Of a stretch of DNA of 21,078 nucleotides, positions 12,961 to 18,212 are shown one piece after another. The first letter of the stretch is position 1. Each line of letters starts with the position of its first letter. The DNA is taken from IMG/VR virus record IMGVR_UViG_3300021197_001731. One strand, 5' to 3'. Source of the DNA: an uncultured virus (IMG/VR IMGVR_UViG_3300021197_001731). Lineage: Duplodnaviria; Heunggongvirae; Uroviricota; Caudoviricetes. The position numbers and the translations under genes are program-made. The notes beneath the pieces are model-generated. The model did no database searches, had not been told where the DNA came from, and worked only from the letters and a program-made list of their open reading frames with translations.

Positions 12961-14013
12961 ATGCTTAACAATGAAAATAAAAGACTAGGCTATACAGAAG
13001 TTTATTACAACTATAAAGCTGACAAATTTTTTACAGAAGACTTTGGCAATCAGTTTAAAGAATTAAATATTACGTTATCCGGTGGTGGTGGTGGTGGTGG
13101 CATTCAGGCTGGAGATAATATTAGTCAACTTACAAACGACGCAAACTATGTTGTTTCAGGGGCAAATATTAGTACTTTAGTAAATAATGTAGGATATTTA
13201 ACGTCTTACAGTATCCCATCAGCAGCCAGCCTACCAACTACAAATTTAAGCTTTGGCAATCTTGCTGCTTTATCTACAGATAACAATCCATATTTTTATG
13301 ATGGTACAGCTTGGAGAAGGATCTTTTTAGCAGATATTCCACCTCAAGCAGGAGATCCTGATACTGATTGGGATAAAGTTATTCTGCGAGTACCTTTTAA
13401 TACAAATACTACTGATGTTAAAAGTAATATTGGAACTAGTGTAAGTGGTACCAGCGCAGTTATTACTGGCAGTCCGAGGAAGTTTGGAGCTGGTGCACTA
13501 AAAGTACAAGGTTCTAGTTACATTTATTACAGCGGCACAAGTTCAGGTGTTGGTGCATTTTTAGATAACGATTTTACAATAGAATTCTGGCTCTATATAG
13601 ATTCATTCAATCCTCAAAACCAAGACACGGGTATATTACGTAAAGGCAATACTTATTTCTATTTTGATTACGCTGGATTTAATCAGATGATCTTTAAAAT
13701 AAAATTAGCTAATACATTTGACCCCGATCTTAGCTTTAACACCGTACAAAACATGACAACTGGCGGTTGGCATCATATTGCTTATTGTAGAAATGCTACG
13801 TCTGGTTTGTGTCAATTATTTGTTGATGGTACTTCAGAAGGAACCGTTAATCTTAACAACATGGTCGATGCAGTTGGTGATAATTTATACATTGGTGATC
13901 TACAAGGTTCTTCAGCAGATATGTATATGGATGATTTAAGAATATCTAATTTTGAACGTTATACATCTGGTTTCACAGCGCCAACAGCAGAGTTGCCAAC
14001 AAGTGGCAGTTAA
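12961..14013 (+). CDS. virion protein with C-terminal LamG/concanavalin-A-like domain
   Basis: DFTIEFW, WHHIAY.R, LFVDG and YMDDLRIS...RYT..FTAPT motifs; Gly7 linker. ATG 12961 is 25 nt after TAAAAT. Confidence 0.8.
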   Translation: MLNNENKRLGYTEVYYNYKADKFFTEDFGNQFKELNITLSGGGGGGGIQAGDNISQLTNDANYVVSGANISTLVNNVGYLTSYSIPSAASLPTTNLSFGNLAALSTDNNPYFYDGTAWRRIFLADIPPQAGDPDTDWDKVILRVPFNTNTTDVKSNIGTSVSGTSAVITGSPRKFGAGALKVQGSSYIYYSGTSSGVGAFLDNDFTIEFWLYIDSFNPQNQDTGILRKGNTYFYFDYAGFNQMIFKIKLANTFDPDLSFNTVQNMTTGGWHHIAYCRNATSGLCQLFVDGTSEGTVNLNNMVDAVGDNLYIGDLQGSSADMYMDDLRISNFERYTSGFTAPTAELPTSGS

Positions 14014-14067
14014 AACAGAAGGTGCTTTTAGGGGACTTTTGACCAGAAGCTGATATACTGAGAACCC

Positions 14068-14190
14068 GCGTCAATACTGAGTAGTTACCACTAAACTACG
14101 CCCGCAAAGGCGACTCCCTAACCTACGGGAGTTCAGGAATTGTGGCAACCCCACAAATACTGATGGTTATAGGTAGACAGGTATTGGCGT
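14068..14190 (+). ncRNA. candidate multibranch structured RNA/ssDNA element upstream of the recombinase
   Basis: A closing helix (14068-79 with 14178-90) encloses four hairpins. TATACT at 14054-59 lies just upstream. Structure assigned by eye. Confidence 0.5.
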
Positions 14191-14205
14191 TCCTTATATA
14201 ACCTC

Positions 14206-14976
14206 ATGTACACAGTCGGAAAGCTTCGGGACTATTCAGCTCCTTACGCAGGCATCACAGACAGCACCTACCGAATGTGGGAAATCACATCACGGCGAAT
14301 GGCTGACCAACCAGTTGTTGCGATTACTTCGCAAGTAGCTGACCTTTACTACAAGTCAGCACTCAAGGACTGGGCAAAGTCAACACTGAAAACTCGGTTG
14401 GGTTACCTGAGTTCTATGTGGAACATCGGTATCAGCAAGGGCATCATCCCAAGTTTTAACCCTTGGGCAAAGATGGGTAGCAAATTGGAATACTCCAAGA
14501 AGCATTACGCCCCTAAAAATTTTGAAGCATTTTCTGCCTTTCACGAGGACCCTATCTTTAATGGTCTCTGGTGGCACGGCTTCAGAGTTAATGAACTAGC
14601 AGGAGTACAGCCAGGAGACTTTGTGCTTGACACAGATGTTCCTTACATTCACGTTTACGAAAATAATGTAAGAGGACTTAAGAACAGATACAGTGCAAGG
14701 ATGGTGCCTATTCATCCTGAGTTTGCTCCCTATGTAAACCATTGGGAATACACAAGCAACCCTAAAGCAGGCGATAACTGGAGCCGTAGATTCAAGGCTC
14801 ACACCGGCACATCCGCTCACGGCTTACGGCATATGTTTATCAACCGAATGCGGAAAGCAGGCATTGAATACAGCATTGCTATGAAAATAGTAGGACACAA
14901 ATGTCAAGGGCAAACAGGTGATTATGGTGACATTGAACTAATAGATATGCTGAACGAGCTACAGAAACTACGCTAA
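14206..14976 (+). CDS. tyrosine recombinase (core-binding + catalytic domains, no arm-binding domain)
   Basis: Catalytic set intact: GFRVNEL (R), LKN (K), HGLRH (HxxR), VGH (H), TGDYG (Y). 256 aa. Confidence 0.9.
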   Translation: MYTVGKLRDYSAPYAGITDSTYRMWEITSRRMADQPVVAITSQVADLYYKSALKDWAKSTLKTRLGYLSSMWNIGISKGIIPSFNPWAKMGSKLEYSKKHYAPKNFEAFSAFHEDPIFNGLWWHGFRVNELAGVQPGDFVLDTDVPYIHVYENNVRGLKNRYSARMVPIHPEFAPYVNHWEYTSNPKAGDNWSRRFKAHTGTSAHGLRHMFINRMRKAGIEYSIAMKIVGHKCQGQTGDYGDIELIDMLNELQKLR

Positions 14977-15080
14977 CTACCGTAGTTTTCTATATACCTG
15001 CTTTTAATCCCCTGTGGCCTCTGCGCTATAGGGGTATTTTTTTATCAGTATATAGATAGCAGCGTAGTTAGCGTAGCTTC
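14964..15080. repeat. nested inverted repeats / putative recombination sites
   Basis: CTACGCTAACTAC (14968-80) pairs with GTAGTTAGCGTAG (15064-76). TCTATATAC (14989-97) pairs with GTATATAGA (15048-56). Local IR: AAACTACG-N8-CGTAGTTT. Confidence 0.85.
15009..15043 (+). terminator. intrinsic terminator after the recombinase
   Basis: CCCCTGTGGC/GCTATAGGGG stem (with G-U pairs) followed by TATTTTTTT. Confidence 0.75.
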
Positions 15081-15127
15081 GATAATAAATAGTTAGAATA
15101 TATTTAGTTAAGTAAAATCGGACAATT

Positions 15128-15268
15128 ATGGCTATCCTAGAATCGGCTATTTTCTGGATCGTACTTGCTGCTGCAAGTGAAATCATTGCATTGACCCCAC
15201 TTAAGTCAAACAGCATGATTCAGCTTGTCTTGTCGGCGCTGAATTCGTTAAAGCCAAAAAAAAGTTGA
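15128..15268 (+). CDS. small membrane protein, holin-like (not in ORF track)
   Basis: MAILESAIFWIVLAAASEIIALTPLKSNSMIQLVLSALNSLKPKKS: hydrophobic N-terminal helix, amphipathic helix, basic tail. Confidence 0.65.
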   Translation: MAILESAIFWIVLAAASEIIALTPLKSNSMIQLVLSALNSLKPKKS

Positions 15269-15519
15269 GCAATATTCCCGATGATGGGAAATGGCTCTGG
15301 CAATTTGACACTCGTTCCGACTTCGAACGAGCTCAACGCTACATTCAAAAAAAGAAGTTCTACGCCACCCTTACTCATAAGCTTGACCAGGCTGAGGAAG
15401 AGTGGAATCAAACGCAGCCAACTGAGAAACCTACGTGGGAAATCTCAGAAAAAGGGACGTTTGGCACAGACGGATGGTCCATTTCAACCCGTTATAAACA
15501 TCTATCAGAAGATGATTGA
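15265..15519 (+). CDS. hypothetical ORF, probably the -1 frameshift extension of 15128-15268
   Basis: Only a weak TTG start. Lies in the -1 frame directly after an A8G run and is followed by a hairpin. Confidence 0.6.
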   Translation: MSNIPDDGKWLWQFDTRSDFERAQRYIQKKKFYATLTHKLDQAEEEWNQTQPTEKPTWEISEKGTFGTDGWSISTRYKHLSEDD

Positions 15520-17824: not shown

Positions 17825-18007
17825 TTAGTGGGAGTAATTTACGCCACGGTATGTAAAACAACCATGCCGCTCTGCAGGGGCAGTAGAAGAAACTGTGGGG
17901 ATCCCACGGTAACGTGTTTCAGACAGGCGATGAATACGTAGTTCGTTTTGTGCGCGACGATACTCTTTGCGAGCATTTTCGACAGCACGAGCTTGTAATT
18001 GGGTCAT
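17825..18007 (-). CDS. DUF4278-like 'YRG' small protein
   Basis: 60 aa from ATG 18007, with GGAG upstream. Two YRG motifs (RYRGI, TYRGVNY); lies downstream of a glutamine riboswitch. Confidence 0.75.
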   Translation of the reverse strand: MTQLQARAVENARKEYRRAQNELRIHRLSETRYRGIPTVSSTAPAERHGCFTYRGVNYSH

Positions 18008-18036
18008 TGGAAACTCCATAGTGAGGTGTAGTTTCC

Positions 18037-18092
18037 CGTTCCTTCCCTCCATTCGTGAGGTACTTGCGTCTCCCAGTGTGAGGAGATGAACG
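18037..18092 (-). promoter_or_regulatory. glutamine riboswitch (glnA / Downstream-peptide family)
   Basis: CGUUC-A-UCUCC(loop)GGAGA-CGCAAGUA-CCUC(loop)GAGG-GAAG-GAACG: three-stem junction with AGUA/GAA E-loop. TAAACT lies 7 nt upstream. Confidence 0.85.
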
Positions 18093-18109
18093 TATCTATA
18101 GTTTAACAG

Positions 18110-18212
18110 GGACTCCCCCACAAATCGCAGGGAAGAGTAATTACTCAGAGAGAAGCAGCAGAAATCTCTGAAACCTAAAGTGCACCCTGACGCTGCTCTT
18201 CTTCAGGTGCAT
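18110..18212 (-). ncRNA. candidate kissing-loop ncRNA
   Basis: Hairpins at 18181-18211 and 18145-18171 have complementary loops (AGCAGC/GCTGCT). TAGACT at 18217-22 is immediately upstream. Confidence 0.45.

Follow-up and report, generated by a model that had tools for sequence, protein, structure and literature searches.

A host tRNA-Gly(UCC) gene fragment upstream of a phage tyrosine recombinase gene: most likely the attachment and control region of a marine cyanophage integrase cassette

The 192-nt non-coding gap upstream of the tyrosine recombinase gene (int) in IMG/VR record IMGVR_UViG_3300021197_001731, a 21,078-nt stretch of DNA (here called the window) that forms part of a tailed phage genome, most likely belongs to an uncultured marine cyanophage and serves its integrase cassette as attachment and control region. 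The gap runs from a stop codon at 14011–14013 to the ATG at 14206, and its core is a piece of a host tRNA gene: an invariant 21-mer (14085–14105) was found to be the exact reverse complement of nucleotides (nt) 1–21 of picocyanobacterial tRNA-Gly(UCC), with 21 of 21 nt identical. Read on the minus strand, tRNA nt 1–21 run from 14105 down to 14085 and, after three differing bases, are followed by CTCAG, corresponding to tRNA nt 27–31 (14081–14077), and TGAcGCGGGTTC, corresponding to nt 44–56 (14073–14062), beyond which the sequence is unrelated (the segment was aligned to the full tRNA-Gly by eye). The copy includes neither the 3' part of the tRNA nor the anticodon loop, the latter being consistently absent, and ARAGORN called neither a tRNA nor a tmRNA in the window, which holds no complete tRNA gene. 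Identity to the host gene begins at tRNA nt 1, the flank beyond it being phage-specific, and extends through nt 31–32 in some phage copies.

A host tRNA gene fragment that follows the recombinase lineage

When compared to bacterial genomes, the 21-mer of the window was found in more than 120 genome contigs, many of them titled Prochlorococcus, Synechococcus, Cyanobium or Nostoc, and all eight host loci submitted to ARAGORN were called as tRNA-Gly(tcc). Within a Cyanobiaceae-type family the 21-mer was present in 78 of 101 genomes, 72 carrying the window's type and six a second type (hand count of the listing). Most other phage leaders carry this second version, which is also a host tRNA-Gly(UCC): in another bacterial family 92 of the 201 genomes have it (tRNA-Gly at eight of eight loci tested with ARAGORN), and at five Cyanobiaceae loci with the second version the C/T and A/G polymorphisms of the phages recur.

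The recombinase sequence alone retrieved no relatives from viral contigs and a profile search was needed, which recovered 25 viral-contig loci among 60 pattern-matching stretches, complemented by the best 80 of 172 metagenomic relatives. Upstream regions were taken from 90 loci and yielded 66 distinct leaders of at least 150 nt, comprising 46 with the architecture of the window (type A), eight longer ones (type B), 11 of type C and one degenerate type A leader. The element is kept upstream of homologous 256-aa tyrosine recombinases in about 60 marine viral and metagenomic loci, in line with the association with the recombinase that an earlier sequence-only reading of the gap had considered. 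It is better conserved than the gene itself, as loci with recombinases that are only 46% identical can have up to 79 of the element's 11-mers in common.

In type B leaders this place is occupied by the last 18 nt of a tRNA-Ser, here in the sense orientation and followed by a terminator hairpin; this sister clade has exchanged the whole interior while the closing arms stay. The tRNA-Ser segment was matched within one to two mismatches in 120 of 121 genomes, and six of six tested loci were tRNA-Ser. In a maximum likelihood tree of 65 recombinases, the tRNA-Gly leaders all fell on one side of a branch with 99/94 support and the tRNA-Ser type formed a 100/100 clade. Mapping the leader types onto this tree required five changes, compared to 25.8 for shuffled labels (none of 200 shuffles was as low), and the kind of tRNA thus tracks recombinase phylogeny. 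A host-matched tRNA fragment beside an integrase, of a tRNA type that follows the integrase lineage, is the signature of a phage attachment site (attP), a principle stated in a passage of the published literature, and the 21-nt identity block is the putative attP core.

Some leaders deviate from the common layout. Three loci (L040, L096 and L099) have two tandem tRNA-Gly 5' blocks upstream of int, with a small hairpin after each. Furthermore, the plus strand of many second-type tRNA-Gly leaders contains the 11-mer GGTTCGTTTGT followed by CAA (e.g. L006, 2440–2470), and the same 11-mer immediately precedes the host tRNA-Gly gene, on its sense strand (L174, L278), inverted there relative to the phage tRNA copy; this sharing may be due to chance or may represent a second piece of attB-derived sequence, attB being the bacterial attachment site.

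Folding, promoter-like boxes and the closing helix

The sequence-only reading had described the gap, then put at about 190 nt, as a compact multibranch structured element, and the helices it listed are all present in the sequence, as is a TATACT hexamer (14054–14059) 8 nt ahead of the closing helix P1. The inner helices are CGCC/GGCG (14099–14112), ACTCCC/GGGAGT (14113–14132) and TCAG/CTGA plus TTGTGG/CCACAA (14133–14163). Its expectation that the element would fold better than shuffled controls was borne out on the plus strand: the RNA fold of 14054–14205 reached -46.8 kcal/mol compared to -34.6 +/- 4.0 for the shuffles (z -3.03, 0 of 200 as good), and 14066–14192 gave z -3.66 with RNA parameters (0 of 200 as good) and z -3.30 with DNA parameters (1 of 200 as good). 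The fold of the minus strand was unremarkable (z -1.03, 30 of 200 shuffles as good). The element, which that reading did not recognise as a known family, had no match among Rfam models, manA and wcaG included, at the gathering score or at E values up to 10. The proposed P2 hairpin, on the other hand, is present as sequence but is omitted from the minimum-energy fold, which instead pairs TTACC in the 14085–14089 region with GGTAG as an inner extension of P1; P2 is no more than the complement of the tRNA D-arm. The start region of int is unpaired in the same fold, and a terminator scan of 14054–14205 returned none.

The conserved "loops" of P4 and P5 were found to owe their conservation to hexamers resembling minus-strand -10 and -35 boxes that fall there, which also accounts for the interchange of GG and CC in the middle of the -10. 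Of the 46 type A leaders, 41 have a minus-strand TAnnnT hexamer exactly 14 nt upstream of tRNA nt 1, two have it at 13 nt and two at 15 nt. TTGACA, TTGACT, TTGCCA or TTGTCA is found 17–18 nt upstream of this box in the type A listing. On the plus strand, most type A and type B leaders have a TAnAnT box 9–11 nt before the 5' arm of P1, carrying a TG extension in the window, and since the box sits just before the helix, a plus-strand transcript would begin at the helix. Of the type A leaders, 41 of 46 also have a TTATAW box 5–7 nt ahead of an in-frame ATG; no Shine-Dalgarno sequence intervenes, and the spacing makes this box a candidate -10 of a leaderless int mRNA.

Among the proposed structures, only the long-range helix P1 with its extension gained some comparative support. 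When the 3' arm was anchored on TTGRYG and nine pairs were counted, 49 leaders gave 32 distinct arm pairs with totals of 214 Watson-Crick, 49 G.U, 10 A.C and 15 other combinations; for the six inner pairs alone the balance was 36 G.U to 1 A.C. Mismatches in the helix are G.U on the plus strand only, and the pairs switch between G-C and A-U and, via U.G, between C-G and U-A. RNAalifold, applied to 21 second-type leaders, kept only P1 and its inner extension (GTGGTCTTACC with GGTAGATTCGC). The cells of the consensus helix were 93.9% paired, compared to 89.1% in shuffles (0 of 500 as high) and 27–42% when the partners were slid, the leaders in these counts being related sequences. A helix also occupies this place in type C leaders, though its sequence, CCTGTTGG/CCAGCAGG as listed, has little in common with the others. 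Being directional, the G.U bias suggests that the plus strand pairs as a single strand, most simply as RNA, and the closing helix may add RNA-level control to the region. Of the proposed structured RNA leader, the closing helix with its compensatory changes has thus been retained, while the core is the opposite-strand tRNA-Gly(UCC) fragment; most of the "multibranch fold" is a by-product of the tRNA D-arm, the promoter spacers and the P1 arms.

The sequence-only reading had further pointed out that AAACTACGC occurs both in P2 (14093–14101) and in a site downstream of the gene (14965–14973). The nine-nt identity is real, and it arises because cyanobacterial tRNA-Gly contains GCGTAGTTT; three other exact 9-nt direct repeats occur in the same 1401 nt, so that such a repeat is not unusual. 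The two places do not covary: AAACTACGC was found in all nine window-type leaders and in none of the 37 second-type tRNA-Gly leaders, whereas an AARCTACG site after the gene is kept in seven of nine window-type and 21 of 37 second-type loci. The proposed connection of P2 with the downstream site is a coincidence. The suggestion of RNA guiding gained no support from an enzyme that is a tyrosine recombinase and a P2 that does not covary with the downstream site. An IS110-type bridge or guide RNA was considered as a candidate and rejected, as the enzyme is not a DEDD/serine IS110 recombinase and P2 again does not follow the downstream site.

Table 1 Features of the leader, the recombinase gene and the region downstream of it (window coordinates).
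Feature	Position	Strand	Basis or remark
Extended -10-like box TGaTATACT, presumed leader promoter P(+)1	14051–14059	+	TAnAnT box at fixed spacing
tRNA-Gly(UCC)-derived segment	14062–14105	-	21-mer identity; ARAGORN on host loci
5' arm of P1, GCGTCAATAC	14068–14077	+	pairs with 14181–14190
-10-like hexamer TAGGTT	14120–14125	-	14 nt upstream of tRNA nt 1; in P4 loop
-35-like hexamer TTGCCA	14143–14148	-	17 nt before the -10; in P5 loop and stem
GGTAG, pairs with TTACC (14085–14089)	14172–14176	+	minimum-energy fold, RNAalifold consensus, pair counts
3' arm of P1, GTATTGGCGT	14181–14190	+	pairs with 14068–14077
TTATAT, candidate -10 for a (near-)leaderless int mRNA, P(+)2	14194–14199	+	6 nt before ATG; spacing only
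Tyrosine recombinase gene (int)	14206–14976	+	256 aa; PF00589, phrog_1
Downstream module: inverted CTACGCTAACTAC sites (14964–14980 and 15064–15080) flanking a segment with a terminator (15009–15043)	14957–15080		

The proposed attachment site and alternative explanations

It is fairly probable that the element is a 5'-type attP, which would rebuild the tRNA-Gly(UCC) gene from a phage promoter, as reported for pelagiphages. Upon integration, the junction on the int side would consist of the phage promoter, then tRNA nt 1–21 and then host nt 22–71, together an intact gene. The plus strand of the same DNA would be read toward int from the extended -10 box, and in that transcript a long-range helix (P1 with TTACC:GGTAG) would enclose the whole region. 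Since the presumed crossover falls between the two P1 arms, the helix would be confined to unintegrated phage DNA; integration would sever int from the upstream promoter, and the TTATAT box, 6 nt ahead of the ATG, would be all that is left to it. We propose tentatively, and with considerable doubt, that the closing helix acts as a sensor of the integration state, with folding and access of the upstream promoter to int only when the phage is unintegrated; after integration the full length of the prophage would separate the arms, and expression of int would fall to the leaderless-type promoter. The lambda sib system offers a precedent in which an RNA structure linked to int depends on an intact attP, so that Int synthesis differs between the free and the integrated state. 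There the whole structure is located beyond attP, and its effect is exerted by RNase III at the 3' end of the mRNA. The arrangement proposed here from sequence would resemble sib in that the linkage of the RNA structure to int depends on the state of attP, but the arms of a 5' leader helix would here straddle the crossover. Provided that the closing helix functions as RNA, integrase synthesis could be coupled to the integration state in very little space. If the sensor proposal is true, 140 nt would contain, nested in one another, a mimic of a host tRNA gene, a promoter to replace that of the tRNA and an RNA switch, an arrangement conserved across a large uncultured cyanophage group.

Phages with comparable attachment sites have been described. 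According to Zhao et al. (bioRxiv 10.1101/410191), the attP sites of HTVC019P-type pelagiphages carry a partial 5' tRNA end, and the integration targets of pelagiphages are tRNA-Cys, tRNA-Leu and tRNA-Arg of SAR11. The phage of the window resembles them in being a marine phage with a tyrosine integrase and a putative attP in non-coding DNA beside int; the core of this attP coincides with the start of a host tRNA gene, so that the phage-borne 5' part would rebuild the gene. It differs in that the target would be picocyanobacterial tRNA-Gly(UCC), in a recombinase that has no match among 50,697 phage records, in an integration that is a prediction here, and in the surroundings of the core, which include a -35/-10 pair at set positions, additional remnants of the tRNA and the covarying closing helix. 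The T7-like cyanophages P-SSP7 and S-TIP37, according to Shitrit et al. 2021 (PMC8776855), have an attP downstream of int that matches tRNA-Leu and integrate at tRNA-Leu without known stable lysogens. They share with the window a cyanophage integrase next to which a stretch of a cyanobacterial tRNA gene is reproduced exactly; unlike theirs, the match described here lies upstream of and antisense to int and concerns the 5' end of tRNA-Gly(UCC), and the genome type is different, with contigs of 65–84 kb. In actinobacteriophages showing tRNA-dependent lysogeny, as outlined by Guerrero-Bustamante and Hatfull 2024 (PMC10865867), attB overlaps a tRNA gene that is destroyed upon integration, and the phage supplies a complete replacement gene. 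A tRNA gene would be the site of attB here as well, and the consequences for the tRNA would likewise shape phage gene content, but the window has no complete tRNA gene and its fragment seems designed to rebuild that of the host.

Several observations weigh against the element being an attachment and control region, or against parts of that interpretation. Neither an attL or attR junction (the sites flanking an integrated phage) nor an intact tRNA-Gly next to int was found in 107 loci, the junction pattern was absent from the viral contigs, and no phage-type continuation of the tRNA was found in 401 genomes. Close homologues of the recombinase were lacking in 401 Cyanobiaceae-type genomes, where the best match had an E value of 1e-31 and the matching proteins were about 400 aa long, and among 401 genomes of the other family there was no homologue beyond one phage-like contig in genome bin G001. 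The recombinase aligns end to end with two-domain Xer-type enzymes and has no separate arm-binding domain, and the inverted sites just downstream of its gene are a plausible alternative substrate. The remnants conserved beyond nt 21 are not required of an attP, and the core of type C leaders had no matches in 101 Cyanobiaceae-type genomes. Regarding transcription, the minus-strand -10 conforms to TAnnnT only and is weak by consensus, and a simple sigma-70 scan picked none of the three proposed promoters (P(+)1 has no -35). The sole RNA sequencing run covers only 15119–15370, away from the element, sequencing runs having been examined as contigs. The closing helix was less evident in an unanchored helix search, which gave a median score of 14 compared to 10 for the control with 9% of the 66 leaders above the control's 99th percentile, and RNAalifold found no structure in an unrefined 47-sequence MAFFT alignment in which the 5' arm was out of register. 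As stable prophages are reported in PMC8776855 to be absent from marine picocyanobacteria, missing prophages are expected either way; the lack of integrated copies or remnants fits this report and likewise the P-SSP7 and S-TIP37 case, and integration itself is put forward here as an inference.

A purely cis-regulatory int leader, one that binds a ligand or protein or senses tRNA with the tRNA-complementary core acting as RNA (e.g. by pairing with tRNA-Gly or its precursor), would account for the plus-strand z-scores of -3.0 to -3.7, the promoter-like box at a fixed distance before the helix, the covariation and plus-strand G.U bias of that helix, and compensatory changes that the alignment shows in the hairpin around 14113–14132 among members of the window's clade (ACTCCC/GGGAGT, ATCCCT/AGGGAT and TCTCT/AGAGA); unmatched in Rfam, it would be new. 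We nevertheless regard it as unlikely, as the invariant residues are fixed by the host tRNA and the minus-strand hexamers rather than by a helix junction or pocket, the sister clade swaps the interior wholesale while the arms stay, and no expression platform is apparent, with no terminator in 14054–14205 and an unpaired start region. Pairing with the folded 5' half of a mature tRNA would moreover be improbable, and the single RNA run lies elsewhere. The minus-strand tRNA-like fragment could instead have a function of its own, as a decoy or as an antisense RNA to the int leader, or be a functionless relic of imprecise excision. A minus-strand promoter at conserved spacing, a transcript that would by its coordinates be antisense to the first ~40 nt of the plus-strand leader, and the consistently missing anticodon loop agree with this; a relic, however, would not stay identical to the host over 21–31 nt in recombinase lineages that are only 40–46% identical, nor switch between two host tRNA-Gly variants, and without the 3' acceptor strand the fragment cannot fold like a tRNA, in agreement with the absence of an ARAGORN call. 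An antisense role is in addition compatible with an attP rather than an alternative to it, and we give this group of explanations a low probability, below that of the regulatory leader.

Both remaining alternatives assign the inverted arms to recombination and appear very improbable. Integron attC sites and the attP(+) of CTX phage are imperfect inverted repeats with strand-specific pairing that are used by small tyrosine recombinases, and the element could similarly be a folded single-stranded DNA substrate whose plus-strand hairpin is presented to the recombinase. The strand-specific asymmetry (49 G.T compared to 10 A.C), the DNA fold (z -3.30, exceeded or equalled by 1 of 200 shuffles) and a small, Xer-like, two-domain recombinase fit such a hairpin, whose stem would mimic the duplex of the host tRNA gene segment. 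In contrast to attC and CTX attP(+), however, a promoter and a tRNA fragment lie in its loop, and the virus would not be expected to pass through a single-stranded stage: the tail fibres, the endolysin and other genes are those of a tailed double-stranded DNA phage, and such phages are not known to have one. The double-stranded form already provides a perfect 21-bp host match, and with a conserved promoter immediately upstream, RNA is the simpler single strand. The fim switch is of the invertible promoter type, and in an analogous arrangement the P1 arms would be recombination sites and the minus-strand promoter would drive int only after inversion. Inverted arms of 9–10 bp do flank a -35/-10-like pair beside a small tyrosine recombinase gene, and the neighbouring downstream module occurs in both orientations; yet all 46 type A leaders have one orientation, the arms are usually non-identical with directional G.T differences that are not expected of recombination sites, and the host-matched tRNA fragment is left unexplained.

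Interpreted as an attachment and control region, the element would link a widespread marine phage group without a cultured member to a host and to tRNA-Gly(UCC) as its probable target in the chromosome, and a 5'-type, promoter-supplying attachment site would enter the debate on cyanophage integration in the sea. The seven tRNA hotspots that a published passage lists for Prochlorococcus do not include tRNA-Gly(UCC). The element also gives reason for caution, as an attachment site composed of a tRNA gene, promoter spacers and inverted arms is able to pass all of the first tests for a structured RNA, namely a good z-score, conservation and even covariation.

Genome context, cassette exchange and the downstream module

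The window encodes two long tail-fibre proteins, an endolysin, an HNH endonuclease and a LysM protein, together with an outer-membrane-like protein whose relatives among 50,697 phage records were found only in cyanophage records (449), a restriction that supports a cyanophage origin. The DNA of 13500–15300 was unmatched in GenBank phage records, as was the product of the open reading frame (ORF) at 512–2296 at the protein level, and the recombinase protein had no match among the 50,697 GenBank phage records. Residues R127, H205, R208 and Y240 of the recombinase are invariant across 31 homologues, which indicates a catalytically intact tyrosine integrase, and besides the Xer-type enzymes the protein also aligns with the Tn1549 Int structure. 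Elsewhere in the window, a glutamine riboswitch (RF01739) was identified at 18033–18094 on the minus strand (44.3 bits compared to a gathering score of 35). It overlaps the 5' part of the listed ORF 17825–18121, whose match to phrog_545 is confined to residues 66–97, and the gene probably starts downstream of the riboswitch.

Leader and recombinase behave as an exchangeable cassette when 14016–14959 of the window is compared to locus L002 on contig C56 of G001: the flanks are as in the window, and 1119–1120 nt replace the window's 942 nt with a type B leader and a recombinase that is 35% identical to the window's. The same swap appears as a joint in one sequencing run, and a shorter variant of the leader interior, with 27 nt in place of 14113–14174, coexists in one metagenome. 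G001 comprises 270 contigs with 6% contamination, has 28% of the window's words in common with it and does not contain the 21-mer; the recombinase is found in 1 of 401 genomes of its family, on this phage-like contig only. The contig is probably foreign to its bin, and the family of G001 is probably not the host. In the other family, elements of 14.5, 22 and 41 kb were observed on the 5' side of tRNA-Gly(UCC) (L240–L244; G096, G191 and G112), situated between an intact tRNA-Gly gene and a second copy of its 5' 21-mer. In G096 (L240) the repeat spans tRNA nt 1–38, and an unrelated tyrosine recombinase and an IS110-type transposase lie inside. As their recombinases are unrelated, these elements show only that insertion on the 5' side of tRNA-Gly(UCC) occurs.

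Directly after the recombinase gene, whose stop codon falls inside the left of the two inverted CTACGCTAACTAC sites, lies a segment of ~85 nt that carries a TATATACTG box facing the gene. This segment occurs in opposite orientations in related genomes: the module of L063 is ~90% identical to the reverse complement of that of L008, while the flanks align in the same direction. Among 73 distinct downstream regions, the complete palindromic site was at the gene end in 11 (as in the window) and at the far end in 15, and 47 were unclassifiable. The module looks like an invertible switch. No inversion joints were reported in the sequencing runs, whose contigs drop rare variants. Its sites could be the other, or the true, substrate of the recombinase, and the module probably lies outside the attachment element. 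A complete tRNA-Ser(UGA) gene was observed on the opposite strand just downstream of type B recombinases (L019, 3279–3367; L022 and L023, 3805–3896), and in L019 it stands in place of the CTAC module. In a marine metagenome run, contig depth over the window spikes ~30-fold at 14942–15002 (1464 compared to 53 and 40 in the neighbouring bins) and many different loose ends start at 14957–14968 and 14998–15005; this site is common to many genomes or contexts and breaks assemblies.

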